Under the pieces are notes generated by a model. That model searched no databases, was not told the DNA's origin, and was given only the letters and a program-made list of their open reading frames with translations. A stretch of DNA of 63,470 bases, the filler included, from Atractiella rhizophila (Eukaryota), in NCBI GenBank assembly GCA_021432655.1. It is 7 parts of 6 records of this genome, joined end to end, with 100 filler letters (N's around TTAATTAATTAA, not from the genome) between each part and the next. Parts side by side here need not be neighbours in the genome. Positions count along the whole stretch, not along the records: positions 1 to 12,105 come from MU272015.1; 6 more parts are not named here. One strand, given 5' to 3'. Position numbers and translations under genes: made by a program. Positions 977-54,430 of the stretch are shown here, piece after piece. Numbering within the stretch: the first letter of the stretch is position 1; each line of letters opens with the position of its first letter.

Positions 977-2541
977 ATGGCCCCTCGCCTTACACGGCGC
1001 TCGCTCACGCTAGGGACACTCGCCTTGATATTCCTCTACCTTCTTTTTTCATACGACACCTCCCACTTTGGGCCATTGACACGCTACAGATATAGTGTGG
1101 AGGGATACACCCCAAGGACATTTAGAAAGAGAATTGTGGCCATTGGGGGTCTGTATCTCCGTCCATTGTCACTTATTCTACCTGTTAGACAGCTTGATTA
1201 CATCATAATTGACATTGTGGTTTCGCAGATATCCATGGAGACCTTCCTCATCTGACGAGGATTCTGCGACTGGCGAGCGTCGCTGACCATCGGCTGAAGT
1301 GGAGTGGGAAGAAGACAATCTTAGTTCGTGGGTATTTTCCCTTTCGATATGAGTCGCCGGTCCGCAAGCGGCCTCTAAACATCTAATACTTCGTGTCATC
1401 TGTCCCGTTGCTGATGCATTGGTTATTGGCTTACAGAGACGGGAGACATTGTGGATCGAGGTAGAGATACCATTGCAATCTATAAGCTTATGGAGAGCTT
1501 GCGGGAGGGAGCGGCGAAGGCAAAAGGCCAGGTCGTGTCCTTGCTAGGAAACCGTTTGTCTTCTGTCTTCCTTTGGTCTCATAATGCTTACGATGCTTGT
1601 ACTTCTGCTTGAAGATGAATACATGAATGCTCTCGGAGATTGGCGCTACGTTACCCCAGAGGATGTAGCGACGTTTGGGTCAGCTCGTGCAAGACGCCAA
1701 GCCATGACCTCTGGTTCGTTGCTCCCTTCTTCTCCCATGTGTTGCGCCACACTCTGATAAATTGAATATAGAAGGATGGATCGGACAATCCTGGCTTACA
1801 AACTACAGCACTACAGCTCGTCTACCCTACGCACTGACATTTCCTTCAATTTCTCCTCCACCTCAAACCTTAGACGCCTTCCCACCTCCGGATCCTTACA
1901 CCCCGCTCCCAGAATTCCCACCCTACTCACATCCTAATCTCTCCCTGTTTTCCACCGCTGCCGCCTCCTTCGTCCACGGTGGCCTATCTCCTGCGTATCT
2001 CACCACTCTTCCTGCTCCGCACCTCAAATCGTTGAACGAAATCGGACACTCGTTACTGGAGAAGGCGGTGAGACCTGTACCTTGGACAAGCACCAACAGT
2101 GCCCTGCCGGGCGATGCAACTACGGAGGAGAGGGAGTTTTATAGTAGTGAGGGACCAGTGTGGTGGAGGGGGTTTGCGACGGAGAATGATGAGCGGTTGG
2201 TCTGTGAGTGGGGAAGGAGGACGAGGGAGTTGCTAGGTGTGAGGAGGCTGGTGATGGGCCATACACCATTGTTGGTCTCATCATTCTCTAAAGCTGGGCC
2301 GACTAACAGGGATGGAATAGCTTGGAGGGCATAAAGACGCGCTGTAACAGCACTATAATCCTAATCGACACAGGTCTCTCCACGTGTGTCCGCCATTTTG
2401 CATTTCTCTCCTCTCTTTCCCACACATCGAGACTAACCCATCCTCTTGTTTATTTTCAACAGCTACTACTCTGGTTCCCTCTCCGCTCTTGAAATCCTCT
2501 ACTCCCTCGTACCCCAACCTCTCCTCGCCGATGCACGACCG
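977..2541 (+). CDS. Calcineurin-like metallophosphoesterase, Shewanella-like phosphatase type, with N-terminal signal anchor; 3' end in N gap
   Basis: Spliced exons give RIVAIG/DIHGD, TGDIVDRG, LLGNH/E, FVHGG, GPVWWRG, VMGHTP and IDTG; hydrophobic N-terminus TLGTLALIFLYLLF. Confidence 0.9.
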
Positions 2542-2973
2542 NNNNNNNNNNNNNNNNNNNNNNNNNNNNNNNNNNNNNNNNNNNNNNNNNNNNNNNNNNN
2601 NNNNNNNNNNNNNNNNNNNNNNNNNNNNNNNNNNNNNNNNNNNNNNNNNNNNNNNNNNNNNNNNNNNNNNNNNNNNNNNNNNNNNNNNNNNNNNNNNNNN
2701 NNNNNNNNNNNNNNNNNNNNNNNNNNNNNNNNNNNNNNNNNNNNNNNNNNNNNNNNNNNNNNNNNNNNNNNNNNNNNNNNNNNNNNNNNNNNNNNNNNNN
2801 NNNNNNNNNNNNNNNNNNNNNNNNNNNNNNNNNNNNNNNNNNNNNNNNNNNNNNNNNNNNNNNNNNNNNNNNNNNNNNNNNNNNNNNNNNNNNNNNNNNN
2901 NNNNNNNNNNNNNNNNNNNNNNNNNNNNNNNNNNNNNNNNNNNNNNNNNNNNNNNNNNNNNNNNNNNNNNNNN

Positions 2974-3860
2974 TTACAAGAGACAGGAAGCACGCGAACT
3001 ATAGCGGGCAACCTCGACGTTCAACTTTAACTGTCGTCCCGAGTAGCTCGCTCTGAGCGCGACCCTCTCCAACCGCGTTTCACCCTTCGACAACTCTAGC
3101 TAAATAAGTTGTTTGGAAGAACCATGTTTCTCTTCTAATTGGGGTTACCGGACCAAGCAGGAAAAATAGAAAAAAACCTCATACCCCACGACTTCGTTTA
3201 AGTCCATGGGCACTAAGTTAAGCCTCTCTCTCTACTTCGGTCTTTCCAAGGCCTTTCACCTCACTAACACACAGAGAAGAAGGACGTGGAGGACTGAACT
3301 CCGAGAGTTAAACACGTTTGAACTGCCTTCTTACGCGTATCCATCTTGAATAACTAAGGAATAAGTTTCTTAGAGCGGGCGAAGAGGGCAGTCTAGGGGA
3401 CCTCTCTCGTGTCTACGCTATGATACGAGTCTCCATTAAGAAGGTAGAAAAGGGCATTAGGGTTGTTTGCCACTAAAGATCTAAGCTGCTGCAAGACTTC
3501 GAGGGATACGAACCTAAACCTTTTCTAGGGGAGTCAGCTATTGAAGGAAGTCCATATCTCCTCGAAGTCCCGATGTAGCGGCTTTCTGGACCGTTCAAAA
3601 AGAGACCTCTACTCGAACCTATAACCGTGCAGGAGGAAGAGTAGAAGAACAAGAACTTAACTGTACAAAGACCAGGTTTCACTATAGTACCAACGTGGCA
3701 AGTATCGCGCGCCAAAAATGAAACCGCTCAAGCCACAAAGTTGGTTACGTACTGCAAAAGTTCGCCTAGCTTAACCTCCTCTTCATATTCCAGAAGGTAC
3801 CTCATAGACTTCTTGGACCATCTTGTAGGTCCCAAGTTCTTCTCAACCTCAGTCCATCCC
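2974..3860. other. Glutathione S-transferase (Cys/omega-like) gene present as complement-only ('mirror') sequence
   Basis: Base-by-base complement read left to right gives CPxAHRARLALGEVGAKWEAVEIDLFNKPSWYKEKINPNGL/VPVIQFGE...VPESGVI/VELIDSLFKESRPLLPSDPLERAQMRYYAQR/...FFSGDELGY.DIMVAPFIAR, with GT..AG introns at 3154-3204, 3268-3341 and 3434-3481. Confidence 0.92.
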
Positions 3861-5525
3861 AGAGGGTGAGACTACTAGTGTAGAGTGTGATATTTTGATC
3901 AACCAGATTCGAGGGCATCTTCCACTATCGAGTTTGCTCCGTTGAGGCGACGCCTAACGAGAGAGCGACGTGTTTATATGGTCTAAACCAAGTGAACTTA
4001 CCATCCTCAACAAAGCGCGGACATAACCAGGGAAGTCACTTCTGCTGTGTTGGTTGAAGGAACGGGTCAAGAACAACCATGACATATAGAATATGATGGA
4101 CATGAAAGACACATAGGATGTACGTCGACAGGCTAATATACGAGTGGGTTGGGTTGGATTACAGAGCAGGAGGTATTACAAGCAAGCAAAACACCGACTA
4201 ATTGATATTCGACAGCCAGACCAACAAACTTCAACTCTACATCTGAGTTCAAATGCGAAGACACGTTTGGAATGCAACAGCAGCCGCACCAGCGGACGGA
4301 CTCGAATGGAGACAGGAGGATTAGGTGGCTGAGCTATAAAGCGCCATATTTTATTTTAGGTCCAGGATAATCTGGTTCACAAATGGAATGAGACAAGACC
4401 GAGAAAGAGGCAAGAGAAACGAACGGAAACGATGTCAGGACTCAAAGGAGCATGCTGCGGTATGGCGTTGCGCTTCCAAATCCGTGACCTCTCATAGGTT
4501 CGATAGAGTACGTGTACTCTTCCTCATCAATGATGGGATAGCGGATAGCTTGAATCACTGATTTATGAGCCTGTGAAGAATTGGATGATTCAAACAAACA
4601 GACCTTTGTCATCCGTTTGAAATTTGCAACTTAAAGATCCAAAGAGTACTTGGAAGATAGACCGCATTCTGGATTGGGTTTTGATTTATTTTATGAGAGA
4701 CGATTGGAGATAAAGTCAACGACTGTGATACGCTTTGTGAGAGTACAAAGACGATGGCCTAGGGAAGTACCCAACGCGAAGCCCTCTTTTATCTTGCTCG
4801 GCAGATATCAACAACTACAGCATTGACGAGCCTGCCGAGAATAATTGTTCTGGCTCCGGTGGTAAGAACAACATAATTCACTAGTATCCGATGCAATGCA
4901 ATGAAAGAGGAAGGCGAAGTCAAGCGAAGAAATACAAAGAAGGACGTTGATCCCGATAACCGCACCGTCGTCCGATGTGCGCACGACATGGTCCTATTCT
5001 CTCTGTGGAGAAACGAGGAGGAGCAATCGGCCACGGTAAGGTCTCCCCACTTCTCCACAGCGCCTCTCGATGCTTTGTTCTCGGCATTAGGAACCCCTCT
5101 GAGGAGTCGATTGGAGCTGGGAAGCAGTTCGCACAGCTTCCTTCAGCGCTTCATTTTGCACTTGGAGCAAGAAGTAGACATGTCTCGTTTGCGGCTTGCG
5201 GTTGAAGGCATGCTCCCGAAGTAAGTACCCGCGAGGGAAGAGCCAGCGACGAACTCCCGAGAAGGGAGGTGTTGGCCAAAACGTGAAGCAGAGCAACTCC
5301 CTGGTGAGCTGACTCTCACAAAACAGCAACTCCAGCAATGTCACAAGTCCAAATTTCTGCCAAAGTAGCCCAATACAGGTAATAGGACTCGGTCACGGTT
5401 AACTTGCTGACACGCAGTTCCCCATTGTTGCGAAAATGGCAGGTGGGACGACGAAGGCAAAACTGTGAGGAAAGTCCTCTTTCGACAGGAGCAAGAAATG
5501 AGGGAATGGACAGACTGAAAATCAG

Positions 5526-8500
5526 TCCAATTAGTCTGTACGTATGAATCCAAGGTAATACAGAATACCCGTGGAGGTGAAATTGCAAAGCAAAGACGAC
5601 AGTCAGGCAGGCATATGAGCTATTGAGTCTGATGCTTCTCTGACGCACACATCTCTACAGGTAGAAGAGCTACATGTCTCGGCAAAGTAAAAGGCAATGA
5701 ACACTTGCTCAACGATAATTATCGGCTTGAGATACTCTTTCTCATCTGGAAATGTCAAAAGGTTCACGGCCAACACGTATATGCTCCGCGGCTCAGCGAA
5801 CCGTCGGACAGGTCAGAAGTGGACTTGTGTAGAGGAGATCTATCTCCCTGAGGAAGGTTGAGCTTTGCCGGTGAGGGCATCATCCAGTCCAGTTATACCG
5901 ACTGATTCTCAGGACCCGCAGTTTTCAAAGAAAAGTACAACGATGGGGAGGGTTCTACTCCCCATGAAATACATCATTCACTCTAAACGCGTTTCAAGCA
6001 ACAGTTTTATCCCTTTTGATCAAGCATCTGAACCAGAAAACTGCAAGTTTCTCCCGCAAGGAAGAAGTAACAGGCGGGCATGTATCCATGTTGTTCACAA
6101 TCTGTTTCGCTTGTGATGCATGAATGAGCGAGTCGGCCCGAGCAGACCTCACAACTCACGACGGCTCTTTGAGCCATACGACATCTCTTCCTTATTTTGA
6201 CATTACTCAACGGAAGGAGCACTGACCATAGTCACATTATGGATGCAATGACACACCTCCCTGCTTCTCTCCCCACTGATATCTTTTTCTCACCCTACTT
6301 CAGCTCCCCTAAGCCATCCTCCAAACACATGAGAAAACCCAAAAGCTTTGCATGATCTTGGTTAACCTCGACCATTCGAGACCCTATTTTGTCCTCTTTG
6401 TCACTCACTGTACCTGCGACGGTACCTCCCTCGACTCCCATATCCAACGCCCGAATTGAGCCTCTTCACAGGACTCGAGAACAGTCACTGCTGCTCCTGT
6501 GCAGTCAAGTTGAGTGCCGTTGATCGCGTGGAGACTGCATTGCCTCCCTCCTCTTTCGATCACGCAGTTTCATTTCACATCGGTCTTTTCAGTCGCACAA
6601 AAAAGCATGGGTCTGAGCTGATAAGCCTCTCCTCTTTTTCAACGTCAGAATCTAGCCGTATTGTCGCTTGGGGTGTATCTTCCTTCCTTTGGAAACGAAC
6701 GAATTCTTGGGTGCTGGGTTACATACCATAGCTGGCTCTCTTTCCTTTGTCGGGCTAGGCTGGCCTTAGCTTTCCTCTGTTCAACGCGGCGCGCATTCAC
6801 AACATCATGAAGTCCTTCTTTTCGTCCTCCTCCTCCTTCGTCGAAGCTGCGAAACGCCGTCTCCCCTCGCCGTTGCGAGCCTTCATCATCCTCTCCCTCC
6901 TCCACTTCATCATCCAGCTCTCCCTCCAATCCGCCGCCTTTGCCCTCTCCACGAATGCCATTCCCGTTCTCCGAATAATCGAGGAGGCGCCACTGGGAAC
7001 GAATCCTAACGTCGTGCAGATCACGAGCGAAGGCAAGAACAGCGGGCTCAGATTGCTCAATTCCTCTCTAGCAGGATTAGCGAAGAGGGACAGGCAGGCA
7101 GAGGATGGGATACGCCAGCAGCTTTTTGGAGGCAATCTCAATGATACTTACGCTGTCTTCCAATTCGATGGTAACGATGAACCCCTCGTCGTTACTCGCC
7201 AATGCTCAATCGCGCTCGTCGAGCCTTTGCGGACGATGAGGAGGTTGCAAAGACAGATTTTCACTTTCCTCTTCTACCAGTTATGGATCACTGGCACTTG
7301 CTTAGTTACTGTCCGTTTGATCCCTTTGTTCCTTTCCCCACCTCTCCTTTTGCGCTTCGTTTTGCTGAGTTGTTCATGGTGGAATAGGTCCTCAATGCCT
7401 CTGTTCCCCATCTCATTTCTGTCCTCATCCTTCACGCCCTCAGCCTCGCTTACTCCCTCTTCCAAGCTGCACAAATGGCCTACTTTCACCGTGAATTCCA
7501 CCACGAAGTCTTAACCATAGCATGTGAGCAGATGTGGTTCAAGCCGTGCGTCCTCGGTGTCCATCCACCATCTACCTCATTGATTGATCAACGACTTACA
7601 CAGATCATACCTCCGCGAACTATACGCTCTCTCCCAAGCCATCTCCGTTACCCAAGCCCTCTTCACCATCCTCTTCTGCCTCGTCGCCTGGAAACTCTAC
7701 CCCGTCCTGGACTGGAACACCTGGCACAAAATCGGGGGCGACCGTCGCCAGAGCGCGCTCAACAAAGCGGTATTATCACTCAAAGTCAACCTCCAACTCT
7801 CCATGTTCTTCGTCCTCACCACCCTCGGCATCTACCTTTCCTTCCTCTTCGGTCAAAACAGTCTCGTCCCCCGAGCAGACAACGAACTCTTCGCTACTGA
7901 CAAATCTGTCAGAACGATTTGGCCAATTGTACTCACGGTCGCTGCCGCCTTCTTTATGCCTTGGCTGGCACTTGGGTTTTGGGTGGTGGGAGGACCGAAG
8001 AATAAGTTGAGCGAGAATGGAAGGAAGGTGATGAGGTGGATAGGAGTTGAAAGCGTCAGAGAATGGATGAGGAGCAAGAAACGTGTGAAAGGGTGGACCT
8101 TGGGAGAGGGTGAGAAAGCGGAATGGAAATGGTTTAATCTCGAACAGAAGTCCGGAGGATGGAAAGTGTCCAGGAAGACGGGCATGGCGGTTTTTTTGTT
8201 CTTTGGTGTGCTTTATATGTAAGTCTTCCCTGGATATCCCCCATCGCTGTCTTCTTCTCGTATTCCTGAACTCCCGTCCTAACTGAACTGGATAGTGTGA
8301 CTCTTGCCATCCTGACGTCAGTACAGATGATCCAATTAGTCTGTACGTATGAATCCAAGGTAATACAGAATACCCGTGGAGGTGAAATTGCAAAGCAAAG
8401 ACGACAGTCAGGCAGGCATATGAGCTATTGAGTCTGATGCTTCTCTGACGCACACATCTCTACAGGTAGAAGAGCTACATGTCTCGGCAAAGTAAAAGGC

Positions 8501-11137
8501 AATGAACACTTGCTCAACGATAATTATCGGCTTGAGATACTCTTTCTCATCTGGAAATCTCAAAAGGTTCACGGCCAACGCGTATATGCTCCGCGGCTCA
8601 GCGAACCGTCGGACAGGTCAGAAGTGGACTTGTGTAGAGGAGAACTATCTCCTTGAGGAAGGTTGAGCTTTGCCGGTGAGGGCATCATCCAGTCCAGTTA
8701 TACCGACTGATTCTCAGGACCCGCAGTTTTCAAAGAAAAGTACAACGATGGGGAGGGTTCTACTCCCCATGAAATACATCATTCACTCTAAACGCGTTTC
8801 AAGCAACAGTTTTATCCCTTTTGATCAAGCATCTGAACCAGAAAACTGCAAGTTTCTCCCGCAAGGAAGAAGTAACAGGCGGGCATGTATCCATGTTGTT
8901 CAACCAATCTGTTTCGCTTGTGATGCATGAATGAGCGAGTCGGCCCGAGCAGACCTCACAACTCACGACGACTCTTTCCGCCATACGACATCCCTTCATG
9001 ACTTTGACATTACTCAATGGAAGGAGCACTGACCATAGTCACATTATGGATGCAATGACACACCTCCCAGCTTCTCTCCCCACTGATATCTTTTTCTCGC
9101 CCTACTTCAGCTCCCCTAAGCCATCCTCCAAACACATGAGAAAGCCCAAAAGCTTTGCATGATCTTGGTTAACCTCGACCATTCGAGACCCTATTTTGTC
9201 CTCCTTGTCACTCACTGTGCCTGCGACGGTACTTCCCTCCACTTCCATATCCAACGCCCGAATTGAGCCTCTTCACAGGACTCGAGAACAGTCACTGCTG
9301 CTCCTGTGCAGTCAAGTTGAGTGCCGTTGATCGCGTGGAGACTGCATTGCCTCCCTCCTCTTTCGATCACGCAGTTTCATTTCACATCGGTCTTTTCAGG
9401 TCGCACAAAAAAGCATGGGTCTGAGCTGATAAGCCTCTCCTCTTTTTCAACCTCAGAATCTAGTCGTATTGTCGCTTGGGGTGTATCTTCCTTCCTTTGG
9501 AAACGAACGAATTCTTGGGTGCTGGGTTACATACCATAGCTGGCTCTCTTTCCTTTGTCGGGCTAGGCTGGCCTTAGCTTTCCTCTGTTCAACGCGGCGC
9601 GCATTCACAACATCATGAAGTCCTTCTTTTCGTCCTCCTCCTCCTTCGTCGAAGCTGCGAAACGCCGTCTCCCCTCGCCGTTGCGAGCCTTCATCATCCT
9701 CTCCCTCCTCCACTTCATCATCCAGCTCTCCCTCCAATCCGCCGCCTTTGCCCTCTCCACGAATGCCATTCCCGTTCTCCGAATAATCGAGGAGGCGCCA
9801 CTGGGAACGAATCCTAACGTCGTGCAGATCACGAGCGAAGGCAAGAACAGCGGGCTCAGATTGCTCAATTCCTCTCTACCAGGATTAGCGAAGAGGGACA
9901 GACAGGCAGAGGATGCGATACGCCAGCAGCTGTTTGGAGGGAACCTCAATGATACTTACGCTGTCTTCCAATTCGATGGTAACGATGAACCCCTCGTCGT
10001 TACTCGCCAATGCTCTATTGCCCTCGTCGAGCCTTTGCGGACGATGAGGAGGTTGCAGAGACAGATTTTCACTTTCCTCTTCTACCAGTTATGGATCACT
10101 GGCACTTGCTTAGTTACTGTCCGTTTGATCCCTTTGTTCCTTTCCTCATCTCCCCGTTTGCGCTTCGTTTTGCTGAGTTGTTCATGGTGGAATAGGTCCT
10201 CTATGCCTCTGTTCCCCACCTCATTTCTGTCCTCATCCTTCACACCCTCAGCCTCGCTTACTCCCTCTTCCAAGCTGCACAAATGGCCTACTTTCACCGT
10301 GAATTCCACCACGAAGTCTTAACCATAGCATGTGAGCAAATGTGGTTCAAGCCGTGCGTCCACGGTGTCCATCCACCATCTACCTCATTGATTGATCAAC
10401 GACTAACACAGATCATACCTCCGCGAACTATACGCTCTCTCCCAAGCCATCTCCGTTACCCAAGCCCTCTTCACCATCCTCTTCTGCCTCGTCGCCTGGA
10501 AACTCTACCCCGTCCTGGACTGGAACACCTGGCACAAAATCGGAGGCGACCGGCGCCAGAGTGCGCTCAACAAAGCGGTCTTATCACTCAAAGTTAACCT
10601 CCAACTCTCCATGTTCTTCGTCCTCACCACCCTCGGCATCTACCTTTCCTTCCTCTTCGGTCAAAACAGTCTCATCCCACGAGCAGACAACGAACTCTTC
10701 GCTACTGACAAATCTGTCAGAAAGATTTGGCCAATTGTACTCACGGTCGCCGCCGCCTTCTTTATGCCTTGGCTGGCACTTGGGTTTTGGGTGGTGGGAG
10801 GACCGAAGAATAAGTTGAGCGAGAATGGAAGGAAGGTGATGAGATGGACAGGAGTTGAAAGCGTCAGAGAATGGATGAGGAGCAAGAAACGTGTGAAAGG
10901 GTGGACCTTGGGAGAGGGTGAGAAAGCAGAATGGAAATGGTTTAATCTCGAACAGAAGTCCGGAGGATGGAAAGTGTCCAGGAAGACGGGCATGGCGGTT
11001 TTTTTGTTCTTTGGTGTGCTTTATATGTAAGTCTTCCCTGGCTATCCCCCAACGCTGTCTTCTTCTCGTATTCCTGAACTCCCGTCCTAACTGAACTGGA
11101 TAGTGTGACTCTTGCCATCCTGACGTCAGTACAGATG
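5526..11137. repeat. Direct tandem duplication of about 2.8 kb (5526-8329 and 8331-11137)
   Basis: Both copies begin tccaattagtctgtacgtatg and end gacgtcagtacagatg; near-identical with scattered substitutions and 1-nt indels; paired ORFs 6807/9615 and 5865/8670. Confidence 0.97.
6807..8329 (+). CDS. Multi-pass membrane protein, copy 1, truncated at the duplication junction
   Basis: Same exons as 9615-11512 but breaks inside the exon VTLAILTSVQM at 8329. Confidence 0.7.
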
Positions 11138-12105: not shown

Positions 12106-12205
12106 NNNNNNNNNNNNNNNNNNNNNNNNNNNNNNNNNNNNNNNNNNNNTTAATTAATTAANNNNNNNNNNNNNNNNNNNNNNNNNNNNNNNNNNNNNNN
12201 NNNNN
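12106..12205. other. Artificial contig-joining spacer N44-TTAATTAATTAA-N44; also at 24305-24404, 36498-36597, 43102-43201, 48351-48450 and 54096-54195
   Basis: Identical 100-nt structure six times; the 12-mer puts stop codons in all six frames; genes (SLD5, CK2) are cut at the spacers. Confidence 0.97.
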
Positions 12206-19345: not shown

Positions 19346-20261
19346 NNNNNNNNNNNNNNNNNNNNNNNNNNNNNNNNNNNNNNNNNNNNNNNNNNNNNNN
19401 NNNNNNNNNNNNNNNNNNNNNNNNNNNNNNNNNNNNNNNNNNNNNNNNNNNNNNNNNNNNNNNNNNNNNNNNNNNNNNNNNNNNNNNNNNNNNNNNNNNN
19501 NNNNNNNNNNNNNNNNNNNNNNNNNNNNNNNNNNNNNNNNNNNNNNNNNNNNNNNNNNNNNNNNNNNNNNNNNNNNNNNNNNNNNNNNNNNNNNNNNNNN
19601 NNNNNNNNNNNNNNNNNNNNNNNNNNNNNNNNNNNNNNNNNNNNNNNNNNNNNNNNNNNNNNNNNNNNNNNNNNNNNNNNNNNNNNNNNNNNNNNNNNNN
19701 NNNNNNNNNNNNNNNNNNNNNNNNNNNNNNNNNNNNNNNNNNNNNNNNNNNNNNNNNNNNNNNNNNNNNNNNNNNNNNNNNNNNNNNNNNNNNNNNNNNN
19801 NNNNNNNNNNNNNNNNNNNNNNNNNNNNNNNNNNNNNNNNNNNNNNNNNNNNNNNNNNNNNNNNNNNNNNNNNNNNNNNNNNNNNNNNNNNNNNNNNNNN
19901 NNNNNNNNNNNNNNNNNNNNNNNNNNNNNNNNNNNNNNNNNNNNNNNNNNNNNNNNNNNNNNNNNNNNNNNNNNNNNNNNNNNNNNNNNNNNNNNNNNNN
20001 NNNNNNNNNNNNNNNNNNNNNNNNNNNNNNNNNNNNNNNNNNNNNNNNNNNNNNNNNNNNNNNNNNNNNNNNNNNNNNNNNNNNNNNNNNNNNNNNNNNN
20101 NNNNNNNNNNNNNNNNNNNNNNNNNNNNNNNNNNNNNNNNNNNNNNNNNNNNNNNNNNNNNNNNNNNNNNNNNNNNNNNNNNNNNNNNNNNNNNNNNNNN
20201 NNNNNNNNNNNNNNNNNNNNNNNNNNNNNNNNNNNNNNNNNNNNNNNNNNNNNNNNNNNNN

Positions 20262-22974: not shown

Positions 22975-24853
22975 TCATCTCCAGCACAAACTCCACAGCT
23001 ATACTTCTCCGTTAAAGACTTACGTCCATGCATGTAGAAATGCTATGGAGACGCAAACCGATACCCTCCTTAGATTATGCGAAGGAGACGAAGGAGTATC
23101 ATAGGAAAGAACTGGCAAGAGTCCCAAGGCAAGATTGGTTGCTACATCATGCTCCTACTTCGTTATGACGGATCTGGTGACTTTGCTGCATGACGAATCC
23201 AATAGGCACGTTGACCAATATTGAGTGTGGAAAAATAATGCGTAAATTAGGATTGAATTGATTCGCAGGGAGAAATTGCGTTGTAGATTGAAAGGAGGCA
23301 ACACGTAAAATGGGACTTTGCTAAGAACAAAGAAACAATATCGATTTACTTTCTGTCAAACCAAGATTTCACCAGCGGAACACAGTTAAGGACAAAAAAG
23401 AGTCACAGCACTTTGAAAGATATGCACTCTCGCTGAAATGGTTCGATGTCACAGTGAAGATGAATGCTATGCTAATAGAAGAAACCAGAGGAAAGGCCTA
23501 GCTCAGACAGCTGAATTCAAAGTCAATAAACATTAGTCCTCTTGTCCACACATGATGAGGAGGTGTCTTCCTGTATCAAATCAAGTTAAGCGGGTAGAGT
23601 CGTCCTGCTCCTTGCTTTCAAGGAGATACGAACAACATCCACATTATGATTCGACAGTGCTACTTGCAGCTAAGAAGGGGAATAGTTACAGAAATGTAAT
23701 GGAAGTGAACTTCTCCTTCTCTCCAACGTGCAAACTAGTTTAAAAAGGAGAAACGCACCCATCATCAACACTAGTTACATGGAAGTGCTTGACTGAGCTC
23801 CAAGTGAAGGTATGATCCCATTCTTTGTCGTAACGATACTTGGCGGCTTTCGACGACTTGGTCAGCTGCTTTGTTGTGACTTCTGTGGATGCGAGGTCGG
23901 GGAGTAGGTCAGGAATTGGGTTGGGAGACTCGGGAGGGCCACCTGGCGGGGTAAATATGATCATCTCGTCCTTTTCAGCCCAGCCTGCGCTTGCTGGTGG
24001 CGGAATTGGGTCAGAGTTGATGAGGTTGATGAGAATCGGAGGCGTGTCCCCTTTTTTCTCGACCACCAAGAGTTGTCGAATTTTTATCTTCGAAGTCTCG
24101 AAAAACATCAAAAAGCCATAAAACGAGGTTCAGATATCTTCAGATCCAGTTCTCTCGCTCTTTGATCCTGGTTCATTCGAAAACCTCAGCCAAAAAAATC
24201 AAGAAAACCTTTTTTAACGGGGCGAAAAGAAGAAATCAATCAATCCTCTAAAATCTTAAAATCCATCTCTTCCTCTTTCCTCTGCCCTCGATTCTGTCCA
24301 GAAANNNNNNNNNNNNNNNNNNNNNNNNNNNNNNNNNNNNNNNNNNNNTTAATTAATTAANNNNNNNNNNNNNNNNNNNNNNNNNNNNNNNNNNNNNNNN
24401 NNNNAAGTACGAACGTTGATAGTATTCAGCTTGGTTATCCCACAGTTTCCATGAAAATCCCCCACCGTCGGACCCACCGCCGGATGGATTGGCCGATAGC
24501 GCGCCGTCTTGTCAGTCAACGATTGAGAGGGAGGTCGAGGTCGTCGTTTTTTAAGCTATCTACCTCTTGGATGCATGTTTATATAGGTATCGTTCTTCAT
24601 GCGGGTTCGGATTTTGAGAATCGAGGACGATCGTCACCGCGTCACCACAAACTTAAATTAAGCAGATCATTCCGCTGTGTTGGGACTATCAACAATCAAT
24701 ATCAAGCATTCTATTTTGCCAGCACAGAAGGTGCATCAAGCAGATGACCACAATCAAGTAAACTGTGAAATTACGCCATATGGGTCTACGAGTGGGGAAT
24801 AATTCGATTTATGGGCACCATTAATGCCGCGGCGTGGTTGTCATCATTTCAGC

Positions 24854-36497: not shown

Positions 36498-36765
36498 NNN
36501 NNNNNNNNNNNNNNNNNNNNNNNNNNNNNNNNNNNNNNNNNTTAATTAATTAANNNNNNNNNNNNNNNNNNNNNNNNNNNNNNNNNNNNNNNNNNNNGCC
36601 TCTTTCAACTCTGATAATCGATCTTATCGTTGGGGAGTTCGACGACACAGGTGAGTAAGAAGATGGCGCGGTTATGGCGACAGGTCGATATTGCAAAACA
36701 GCCAACAACTTGAAGGGTTCATCGGTCCCGACCGCGTCAAGTAAAGGAAAGGAAAGGAACTTCCA

Positions 36766-42590: not shown

Positions 42591-43201
42591 AGTGTACCAT
42601 CATTTCGTTTAACCTGCCGATTTGTAACAATTGCCTGTAACATTGACCTAGACCCTGATTCCACGGCTCCCAACGAACAACCTGACCGAATGGTGAGGGT
42701 TGGATCATTTGTTGGCGTGGTATGCCATGAAGCGAGAATGACGAGAAGCAAATGCTGACAAAGAGACAGCAAGGCCGTTTTTTGAGCACGATGGCCTCTT
42801 TGGAGTGACCTCTTGCCTGACTCTATTGTCCTCTCCTCCACCCCAGTCTTCCAACGAACGTCGATGACTTGTCACGGCCGGGAGAATGCAACTGAATACA
42901 AGACAGTGAGTGGGACCATTGAGCCAGATTTACCTTGAGAACCAAACTTGGAGGGGTATCCAATAGACGAAGTTACAGTTTCACACAAGCCTTTTTGCCA
43001 GCGTGTGAACGTGCTGACAACGCTGCTGTGGGTGATTTGACTCCATAAACAGGAAAGGTCGGTAATTATTGTCATTAATGTCATTAATTTCCTGGACGGG
43101 GNNNNNNNNNNNNNNNNNNNNNNNNNNNNNNNNNNNNNNNNNNNNTTAATTAATTAANNNNNNNNNNNNNNNNNNNNNNNNNNNNNNNNNNNNNNNNNNN
43201 N

Positions 43202-47634: not shown

Positions 47635-48350
47635 ATGATCCGACCTTCCTCCGCCTTTCCCGCGTGTCTCTCGTCAGCTCCACCAGATCCTCCCTTCTGC
47701 GACCTGCCTTCCGTCTCGCCCTACTACGCCGCCGCTTGTGAAGAGCAAGCAGACCTTTGGTCCGCTTATGAGCTCTACAGACCAAATTGGGGAGAGACGG
47801 AGCAGTATGTTGTCATTAGAAAGGTGGGTAAAGGAAAGTATAGTGACGATTTTGAGGGGAGGAGAGGGGAAGATGGGGAAAAGGTGGCTATTAAGGCATT
47901 GTCCATTTCTCAGTTCCTTTCGTACATTAAACTCATTTCTTCAACGAGAACAGGTCCTTAAACCGGTGAAGAAGGACAAAATCCTTCGCGAGATCAAAAT
48001 CTTACAAAACCTCTACGGTGGACCAAACATCATCAAGATGCAGGATATGGTCATGGATTGGTACACGAAGACACCATCTTTAATTTTTCCATTTGTGGAG
48101 ACATCTAACTTCAAGACTTTGAATCTCAGCCTTAACTTGAAGGATATTAAATACTACATATTCTTATTGCTTACAACCTTGGACTGGGTTCATTCGAAAG
48201 GAATCATGCATCGGGATGTGAAGCCTACGAACGTGCTTATCAATCACAAGCAACATAGCGTAAGTATATCTCTTCTTTAGGTATGGAGCTCAACCTAACA
48301 CTACCGAGATAGTTACGACTAGTAGACTGGGGATTAGCCGAGTTCTACAT
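47635..48350 (+). CDS. Casein kinase II alpha-like kinase, divergent; cut by spacer
   Basis: [68 protein letters not shown] (the DWG motif is CK2-specific). Confidence 0.9.
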
Positions 48351-48473
48351 NNNNNNNNNNNNNNNNNNNNNNNNNNNNNNNNNNNNNNNNNNNNTTAATT
48401 AATTAANNNNNNNNNNNNNNNNNNNNNNNNNNNNNNNNNNNNNNNNNNNNAGTTACGACGGCTGGTAACCTGT

Positions 48474-51400
48474 TCACGTAAAGTTCTTGCTAAACCAACC
48501 AGCGACTCCTTGCTTCAGGGCTTGTTGAGCAGCCACACGCTTCGCCTCCTTGATCATCTCCGACGCTCCTTTTCCAATGTCTTCCAAAGCTTCCTGAACA
48601 TTCGCCAACCGGTTCTCACGCTCTTCGAGCGCCTCTTGAGTGTGTTCAAACGGGTTCGAGCTACCCGAAGCGGCATCCGCTGCTGGACGACGAGCGATGG
48701 TCGATGCGCGCTTAGGGGCAAGCTTGGAAGTTACCGTTGGGGGAGGATCTGGTTCTGGTCCACCCACTGGGTTTCGTGAACGTCAGCAACAAATAGTTCA
48801 TAAGAAACGGCGTACAAAGTTCATCGATGGTCCTTCCGTCGCTCACCGCCGTTTCTCCATCTTTGCCAGCCCACCAATTTGACCAAGCTTCAACTTGGCT
48901 CATGAGGATGTTATTCTTTGTCGGATGAGGAGGAATCTCAACATGTCCATCTACAAGCTTCATATTTGGTGGGAAGGAAGGTCGATTGAAGTCGAAGATG
49001 CTGTAAATCTCCATCGCTCCACCCGGCGAGGGATATATAAAATCGCCAGTAGAAGGGGTGATATGTATCCTGTCCAAAGGGAAGGCATCGGAAGGAGTCA
49101 TGATTCCGATCCGGTTATCCTCCTCAAGATGCGGGAGAGAGAAAGAAGATATGCGTCCGTTCCTCTGAACGAGGAGGAGAGCGGAATCACCAGATTGATG
49201 GATATAGGAAGATGTCACGAGTTCGCTGTCCGTACTCTTTTTCAGTACCCGAGAGCCGTTGACTCCCGAAAAGACCTCGACCGTTCCATCTTGCGACACG
49301 GAATAAAGATAACTCTTCGCCTCCTCGTCTTTCCTAGAGGTTGCAAGTGTCGGGTCCTCCATGAACGCGAGGGCAACTTCAAGGGTCTCAGGCGTTCCTC
49401 GCAGCTCGACACAATGATGATCCATGACATATAGTGAGAGCAGAGGCGTTCGAACAGTCACGGAGGTTGTGTGATGAGTGTTGACTGTCCAAGTCGACAG
49501 GGAGTAAGAGAGTGTGAGTATCCGGACATGACCAGATGTATAAGCGACAAGAAGACGTGGAGAGACCATTCGATCCGTCGAGAGCTCGCACACCGCCCAC
49601 TGCAGCAAGATGGCCTCACCCCAATCCTTCCCCTTTCGTTCTTTCTCCCTCTCCTTCGACACATGAACCACCTCCTCAGAATCCCTCCAAATCCAATCCC
49701 CGTCCCTCAAGTCTATGATCCACAAACCCAACTCGCCGGATCCTGCCACGAATCCCATATCAGAAAGGCAGAGCTTTCCGTCCTGCTTCCCACTTCCACC
49801 ACTGATGAGAGCGATCGGCTGCACTGCAGACGCAAGAGAAGGATAGTAGTTGTGTCGGAGATCAACATGCTCGATGTGGTGTGCACTCAGTAGCGCATTT
49901 GGAGCTTTGGACGGCGAAGGTTTTTGCTTATGCAGCATGGCGGAGAGGCGAGAGCTTTGGGACGGTCTAGGAGAAGAGGAATCCGCCGCCACGCTGGATG
50001 GAGCAGATGGGGACGAATCCTTTGTCGTGAGATCTGCCATAGCTTCCGTCATCGTAGTGTGCAAATGTTCTCCTTCATCCTCTTCTGCTTCAGTCGGGAC
50101 GAGAGAAGATCGAACGTTTCTCCTTGGGGCGGAAGTCTGACCCAGTCTTTCCAGCGGACAACTTCGGTGAGCCCAACAATCTCTGTTACCATTTAGGAAG
50201 ACGAACCGAAAGACTATAGTCTTCCCGCCTTTCAACAGGACGGCGCAATCCCACGTCTCTTTTGCCAGCTGGACATCCACAATCCATTCTTGGTCTTTTA
50301 CGAACTCCTTCAGCTCCTTCGCTTCCAAGTCGATTGTCAAGTGGTCCAAAGGTTTCGGGAAGAGCTCCTTGATGCGTCCTGAGAAGGCGGGCGCTTCCCC
50401 TTGATTGTGATTTACGCCTCTGAGTGCTCCATGCGGGTCTTGGAGAAGGTGAGGGGAGACTGTACGAACAAAGAAACACCCAGCCTCTCAGGTTGCAGTT
50501 CATAGGTTGAGAGGGGAGGGAGATAGAAGGTGAGCAATCATGACAATGAGATACACACCATCGTAGAATCTGACCTTTCCATCGAGGTGCCAACCAACGA
50601 TTACCTCCTTCGCACCCTCCAAAAAAGCCTTCATCCCCCTCTCCGCGCTCCTCACGCCTTCCATGGCCCGACCACCCATGATGTTCAACCTGGCCGTGGT
50701 ATTCGCATCCTTCGTCATCCTCTGATATACCGTCTGCTTCGGCACATCATACACCTTACCCTCCACAAGGGCACCATCACCCAACCACTCTAAACACAAT
50801 GGGACGGCCAGCCTCCTCGGCTCCTTACTCCATCCCTTCCCCACAACTTTACCAACCTCAAACTCGAATGCTCGCACGCTTCTCTCCAACTCTGCCGCTC
50901 GGGAATCAGCTACAATGATTACTATTCCTTTCGGGTTATGTGCGCCATCATAATGTGGAGAGGAGGGCGAGAGGAGCTGGTATTCGTAGGGGATGAGGTG
51001 TGGGGAAGAATTGGAGGAGGTTGGGAACAGACAGGAGGACTTAGACGGATAGATGAGGGATCTGAGCGCTTCTTGTCGCGCCAGTTTGGCGGATGCACCT
51101 GTGGGAGAGGAGGGAGGGTCAGCGTCGGGGTTGGAGCCTTTGGGATTGCTAGGATCGTCTTTTGGGAACCTGAGTATGGACGAAGTTTGAGAAGGAGAAG
51201 GAGGGGAGCTGTAAAATACGGACGAGATATACCACACTCCCTTCTGCTCCGTCTTCATCGTTCCCCCAAGAACTAACAAACAATCCGTCGTCCCTCCCCC
51301 CGCTTGTTCTCCCGCTCCAGCCGCGACCGAACCATCGGCATGACACCAAGAGAGTTTGAATACGGGTTCCCTAGCACCAACCTTCCCTTCTCCCCCTTCA

Positions 51401-53595: not shown

Positions 53596-54095
53596 TCACA
53601 CCTCGTCGTCCTCTTCCCTCTCCCCCTCCGCATCCAATACTTCCCCACGGAAAGCATGGCCATAACCATAAGCATCCCAAATGCTCTGTCCACCGGCCCC
53701 TCTCCAGTTGGGTTGTGGAGGAGGAAGGATAAAGAGAGGACGAACCGCTGGTGTTGGCACTGGTGCTGGAAGTTGTGGTGGTGTTGGTGGTCGTGGTGGT
53801 ACAAGTGGAGGAAGGTGTATGGGATATGAGGACGACCATCGCTCTGCCGGCGTGACTGCTGGAGCGGATGAGTAATGTCTGGTGCCTGTTGTTCCCCCTG
53901 AAAGTGACGGGTACTGTCTGTGTCCCGTGCTTGAGGGGGCAGAAGCCGAATGCTGTTCTTGAGGTTCGCTCATCAAGCCCCTAACGCCCTGGGAGGTGTA
54001 TGACCATTGGTGACCACCTGTTGAGCTCGAAGGTGGGATGAGTGGATAGCGCTGCGATGGAAGCGACTGCGAAGTTGAACTGGTGAAACGAGTGG
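53596..54095 (-). CDS. 3' end of a Pro/Ser-rich hypothetical protein, cut by spacer
   Basis: Low-complexity frame ending PPQPNWRGAGGQSIWDAYGYGHAFRGEVLDAEGEREEDDEV. Confidence 0.5.
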
Positions 54096-54430
54096 NNNNN
54101 NNNNNNNNNNNNNNNNNNNNNNNNNNNNNNNNNNNNNNNTTAATTAATTAANNNNNNNNNNNNNNNNNNNNNNNNNNNNNNNNNNNNNNNNNNNNGAGCC
54201 TGTTTGGAGGGTTAATTAAGAAAAGTATCACTCACAACAGTTAACTCCGTACAACAGAGCTGATGCACTGATGGTTGACTTGGGTTGAGAAAGTGATCGA
54301 GCATCGGGAGGCAAAGGCTCGACTAAGGTTTATGGCAGCATGTGATCCTTCAAAGACACCAACAACAGCACACGGTTACTTGCAGCAGCTTGTTGCTCGC
54401 CAGACCAAAGAGCAAGAAGCCAGGAGAGGT

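Follow-up and report, generated by a model that had tools for sequence, protein, structure and literature searches.

A glutathione S-transferase gene hidden in a reversed but uncomplemented block at a scaffold gap of Atractiella rhizophila

We analyzed a stretch of 63,470 nucleotides, filler included, from the genome assembly GCA_021432655.1 of Atractiella rhizophila (hereafter the window; all positions count along it). Near the left end of the window, a run of 432 N at positions 2542-2973, which is a sized scaffold gap, separates a normally written spliced gene from a block of 902-903 bases (2974-3875/3876) whose string is reversed without being complemented. The left end of the block is flush with the gap, at position 2974, and on the right the transition at 3876 is free of N, the block being continuous there with normally written DNA. 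The bounds are either 2974-3876 or 2975-3875, with an ambiguity of one base due to the T found at each end. Reversing the true + strand and complementing the true minus strand yield one and the same string. Read from right to left, the block is the true + strand, and it restores to an ordinary fungal glutathione S-transferase (GST) gene located on the true minus strand. The features of the locus and the joints of the window are collected in Table 1.

In the complement-only reading, the GST gene begins with an ATG next to the gap and is interrupted by short introns. The three GT..AG introns and the GC-AG intron after position 3625 that had been proposed in the first-pass annotation are present at the expected places; for the last of these we infer that the GC donor was used in preference to the alternative GT donor at 3630, which is out of frame. 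The GST introns are 48-74 nt long, and the introns spliced out of the RNA contigs on the flanks of the block measure 42-79 nt for 10 of 12 joints. After position 3854 the reading frame exits the block toward the gap. The block is noisy, and the several 1-nt indels that had been suspected in it could be located as at least five frame changes of one base each (Table 1). The first of these falls where the catalytic residue (Cys, Ser or Tyr) is expected; of the motif CPxAHRARLAL described earlier, the AHRARLAL stretch is recovered, and a CP directly ahead of it is absent from the sequence, the frame change being located there. The pattern of motifs may recall that of Omega-like GSTs.

In the true layout, the GST ATG (the complement of 2975-2977) lies one base from the junction at 3876, and the 3′ end of the gene points into the gap, where the C-terminus is lost. 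The nearest in-frame stop is found 27 codons upstream of the ATG, in normally written DNA, and no in-frame ATG precedes the one at 2975-2977, which is probably the true start of the gene. On the other side of the gap, the spliced gene at 1437-2541 has an open frame across its joined exons. By motif it may be metallophosphatase-like, and a Pfam search with its single exons gave no match (0 of 3). This gene and the 3′ end of the GST gene enter the gap from opposite sides. The exon structure of both genes that flank the gap and the GST gene is given by transcript-like contigs from two public runs (X3 and X6).

Table 1. Features of the mirrored GST locus, its flanks and the joints of the window
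Feature	Position	Strand or reading	Remarks
Neighbouring spliced gene	1437-2541	+	Runs into gap; introns 1554-1614, 1713-1770, 2271-2320, 2384-2462
GST exon 1	2975-3153	Complement-only	ATG 2975-2977; frame change 3038-3040; N-terminal part of thioredoxin-like domain
Intron 1	3154-3204	Complement-only	51 nt, GT..AG
GST exon 2	3205-3267	Complement-only	21 codons
Intron 2	3268-3341	Complement-only	74 nt, GT..AG
GST exon 3	3342-3433	Complement-only	N-domain end, linker, C-domain start
Intron 3	3434-3481	Complement-only	48 nt, GT..AG
GST exon 4	3482-3625	Complement-only	Two 1-base frame changes, near 3531 and 3553, that compensate each other
Probable intron 4	3626-3680	Complement-only	55 nt, GC..AG
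GST exon 5	3681-3854	Complement-only	Helical C-terminal domain; frame changes near 3738-3740, 3791-3795
Putative 5′ UTR and promoter	3877-4143	-	Normally written; directly upstream of GST ATG
Neighbouring spliced transcript	4144-4737	-	Normally written; introns 4372-4424, 4549-4603 (CT..AC on + strand); runs X6, X3
100-base joints	12106-12205, 24305-24404, 36498-36597, 43102-43201, 48351-48450, 54096-54195		

As references for the homology tests we used nine GST-fold proteins of E. coli K-12 found via Pfam PF13417; eight of them pass the cut-off of this family, and the ninth, with 19.3 bits, falls short of it. SspA is annotated in the E. coli record; the names of the other reference proteins, including GstB, are those that we presume them to bear. 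All four readings of the block were aligned to them by an unbiased procedure that allows for introns and frameshifts and involves no prior choice of frames. For the null, 50 blocks of 902 bases were drawn at random and likewise aligned in four readings (n=200); for SspA/GstB, respectively, their scores have a mean of 44.2/41.7, an sd of 6.6/6.7 and a maximum of 64/65. The complement-only reading scores 99 against SspA and 87 against GstB (z = 8.3 and 6.8). The remaining readings stay within the null, with 33/36 for the + strand as deposited, 40/58 for the - strand and 40/39 for the fourth. The complement-only string is thus the only one of the four that aligns to E. coli SspA and GstB, in agreement with the GST call of the first-pass annotation. 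Its remark that none of the six normal frames yields a recognizable protein agrees with the range of 33-58 obtained for both normal strands. It had also described the segment as readable only when complemented from left to right, and this is true of 2974-3875, where GST-like peptides occur in three frames.

The conceptual protein, spliced by hand, has 219 amino acids with X at six breaks. It matches SspA with an E-value of 4.2e-9 and GstB with an E-value of 5.4e-8 in a database of 706 sequences, and about 700 decoy frames gave no match to the E. coli GSTs. Against a profile of the nine proteins it scores 47.2 bits over positions 9-174 of 207; the match spans both GST domains, the thioredoxin-like N domain followed by the helical C domain, and the last part of the protein is in the gap. 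Searches with unspliced material gave weaker signals. A tblastn search of the nine E. coli GST-fold proteins, which are distant relatives, against the deposited and the complement-only window found nothing in the block at E <= 10, and phmmer and profile searches of ORF pieces of at least 30 amino acids (1263 deposited, 1293 mirrored) found nothing at E <= 1. With the filters off, two pieces from the block, 3001-3297 (E 0.095) and 3342-3434 (E 0.92), rank first and second of the 1293 mirrored pieces, and they are collinear on the profile. A profile test on chains of pieces, which is too insensitive for this purpose, gave 4.1 bits for the mirrored block (4th of 604 chains). Finally, a blastn search of the mirrored block against the window returned only matches of 13-29 bases with E >= 0.12, and a normally written second copy of the gene was not found there.

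The composition of the block is inverted relative to the remainder of the window. When a string is only reversed, dinucleotides trade places with their partners in every pair not made equal by strand symmetry. In the segment 2974-3920 the TA/AT ratio is 1.74 vs 0.63 in the rest of the window, the AC/CA ratio is 1.34 vs 0.81, and the AG/GA ratio is 1.16 vs 0.86. The first-pass annotation had suggested scanning gap flanks for a swapped TA/AT bias, and for the block in this window such a swap is indeed found. We further fitted a strand-symmetric 4-mer Markov model to the sequence outside the block and took as the statistic the log-likelihood of a segment as written minus its log-likelihood when reversed. 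The block has a value of -27.7 (z = -7.1), and 1048 other N-free segments of 902 bases average +22.4 (sd 7.0) with a minimum of +1.7, none of the 1048 being at or below 0. The cumulative curve of the statistic goes down from 2974 to a minimum at 3885 (2974+911), stays flat until about 4500 and then goes up.

The junction at 3876 was also compared with independent contigs. Six public runs were found by an index search, and four of them were aligned to 1400-6400. Two of the runs (X1 and X2) represent one sample and are genomic-DNA-like; this sample may or may not be the source of the assembly. X6 and X3 behave like transcript assemblies, since their contigs skip GT..AG or CT..AC introns; X3 is listed as 'DNA?' and X6 as '?'. 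The contigs match 1400-2541 and 3876-6400 with few differences. On 3876-4554 the X1/X2 contig has two other letters and one gap, and it extends to the left by 176 letters in X2 and by at least 255 in X1, which do not fit the window as deposited. Of this loose end, only the 30 letters that abut 3876 are visible, and 29 of these 30 coincide with 2975-3004 when that stretch is reversed rather than complemented; elsewhere in the window, the best agreement of the 30-mer is 21 of 30 letters (+ strand) or 18 of 30 (- strand). Therefore, the true + strand to the left of 3876 is the block read from right to left. The public contigs carry the un-mirrored sequence at 3875/3876, and this position is the right boundary of the block, which replaces both the end at 3920 and the unclear boundary of about 3960-4550 given in the first-pass annotation.

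The positions 2974-3875 themselves are covered by no contig of the four runs, whose contigs cover both flanks, and among the contigs shown none bridges this stretch; we do not count the hole as evidence. On the other side of the gap, the loose ends that run past 2541 carry the same unaligned sequence in all four runs, which is real gap content. Compared with all readings of the block, the loose end past 2541 agrees in 16 of 30 letters at best.

The window as a whole is a pseudomolecule in which small scaffolds of 5-12 kb were concatenated. It contains six joints of 100 bases, each consisting of 44 N, the 12-mer TTAATTAATTAA and another 44 N. This 12-mer is its own reverse complement and provides stops in all six frames; all-frame stop linkers are used for building pseudomolecules. 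It follows that sequences across a joint need not be genomic neighbours, and that the record passed through string-handling scripts. At positions 1995, 4223, 4247 and 4638, all four aligned runs, which come from three studies, agree with each other against the deposit, and the difference at 4223 is a 1-base indel. Either the deposit contains errors at single bases or it stems from a private strain, and such private differences of one base, with four of four runs against the deposit, mark the sequence as being of draft quality.

A direct repeat occurs within one contig to the right of the locus, at 5526-6891 and 8331-9699, with its copies about 2.8 kb apart. Three probes of 300 nt taken from it show 96-99% identity and a start-to-start spacing of 2805-2808. 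Two contig variants cover 5879-6097, one with 0 differences and the other with 15, in keeping with two copies that have diverged. The repeat may represent either a genuine tandem duplication or one created by the assembly.

The composition scan of the window revealed no mirrored block besides 2974-3875/3876. The segment with the second most negative composition, 48248-48518, was rejected as a candidate: it lies at a scaffold end and reads normally, as a kinase-like exon with an intron. By eye, the sequence at 48100-48350 resembles a protein kinase exon with its intron and the exon after it, which extend to the end of the scaffold and are cut there by the linker. The mirrored forms of the other contig ends gave no match except two short self-mirror repeats. 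These repeats, which match in complement-only form against the opposite strand, lie at 36737-36761 (25 bases, 92%) and 53761-53797 (37 bases, 89%), and they are probably of no consequence. The other sized gap of the window, at 19346-20261, has normal edges by the same scan.

We are nearly certain that the block is a data-handling artefact that hides an ordinary GST gene, with a reversed read or gap extension as its putative cause. A reverse or complement handling error beside the N gap had been suggested in the first-pass annotation, and the gap edge flush with the block, the public contigs and the homology seen only in the mirrored reading concur with this idea. A single noisy read or gap extension, sequenced leftward from the contig end into the gap, would represent the minus strand. 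If such a read were stored after 'complement' (or 'reverse') instead of 'reverse complement', exactly the deposited string would result. It may have been pasted in during manual finishing or by a home-made script, and the draft would later have been chained into the pseudomolecule. Reversing the block in place would restore the GST gene on the minus strand. Four of the five frame changes fall in the last 40% of the supposed read, and with a chance probability of about 0.09 this skew is too weak to claim a Sanger read; the frame changes show only that the block is noisy and say nothing more on the type of read. A contig flipped wrongly by the scaffolder does not fit, because there is no N at 3876 and the block is not a whole contig.

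The same bug might have acted at many gap edges, both here and in other assemblies from the same pipeline, with many genes hidden as a result. The other sized gap of the window, with its normal edges, gives no sign of a systematic bug, and we consider this broader reading rather unlikely, albeit more likely than a natural mirror copy.

The junction one base from the GST ATG is either a coincidence or a hint of a feature-based operation. In the latter case, a minus-strand gene feature would have been extracted, reversed only and written back by a script. One end of the block is one base past the ATG that comes first in the GST frame, and the other is the edge of the gap. An off-by-one feature slice would give exactly these bounds, and the linkers make it clear that the record was handled by scripts. 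However, an annotated feature is unlikely to have contained five or more frame changes, and a pipeline would have no reason to write the sequence of a feature into the genome. Moreover, a gene offers about ten landmarks, and for a boundary to fall within 1-2 bases of any of them is not very improbable post hoc. On balance we think that a feature-based script error probably did not produce the block, and we give it roughly the weight of an outside chance.

It is very improbable that the mirror arose only after the public record, through handling of the window or as a planted control, with the deposited record itself being normal. The tidy bounds at a gap edge and a start codon would suit such an origin at most indirectly, but the noise of at least five frame changes fits the poor end of an original contig better.

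A real biological rearrangement of the strain, whether an inversion or a mirror-copy process outside those known, has nothing in its favor besides the deposited string, and we regard it as extremely improbable. After an inversion, the reverse complement would be readable on a normal strand. With 33-58, however, neither normal strand rises above the null, and the unreadable normal minus strand excludes a true inversion. Extremely improbable as well is the version in which the deposited string is real and a natural 0.9-kb mirror copy of the GST, made by such a process, has replaced the gene, as the contigs from the public runs are normal at the junction. Base pairing in DNA is antiparallel, and the 5′ to 3′ polarity is preserved by all polymerases and at recombination joints; no process is known to make a reverse-only copy. 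Since strand polarity is always kept, a natural mirror copy would be without a known mechanism. Least probable of all, and close to impossible, is a chance resemblance, with the GST-like peptides arising as noise from an unusual reading frame: the single ORF pieces are weak against the E. coli GSTs and tblastn has no match in the block, but the alignment z-scores, the 47.2 bits of the spliced protein, the two top-ranking collinear pieces, the inverted composition statistic and the fitting splice signals all contradict it.

The handling artefact represents no new biology, and its value lies in curation. The record renders a real GST gene unreadable, and annotation or a pan-genome comparison will score this gene as absent. 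The case also demonstrates that a mirrored block can be recognized correctly from sequence alone, without tools. As the forward/reversed 4-mer likelihood set the block apart from all 1048 other 902-base segments of the window, it could be used to screen whole assemblies.

The restored gene resembles the cytosolic GST superfamily in the order of its domains, a thioredoxin-like N domain and then a helical C domain, and SspA and GstB are its best matches among the nine reference proteins. Unlike an intact GST, it has a frame change in the region of the catalytic residue, its C-terminus lies in the gap, and at least five frame changes interrupt it as deposited. The block shares with an inversion or a misoriented contig an orientation that disagrees with the flanks and a position beside a gap. 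However, an inversion leaves genes readable on the other strand and keeps the k-mer statistics, whereas the block is unreadable on both strands and its statistics are inverted. Choosing 'reverse' or 'complement' in place of 'reverse complement' is a commonly known type of error, and in the literature searched we found no description of reverse-only blocks in assemblies. The block has the marks of such reverse-only or complement-only handling errors: it is an exact mirror of real sequence with the dinucleotide asymmetries swapped, its gene becomes readable after the missing operation, and it occupies a contig edge beside a gap. It differs from the usual errors of this type, which affect a whole entry or a primer, in that here a part of a contig is concerned, inside an assembly scaffold.
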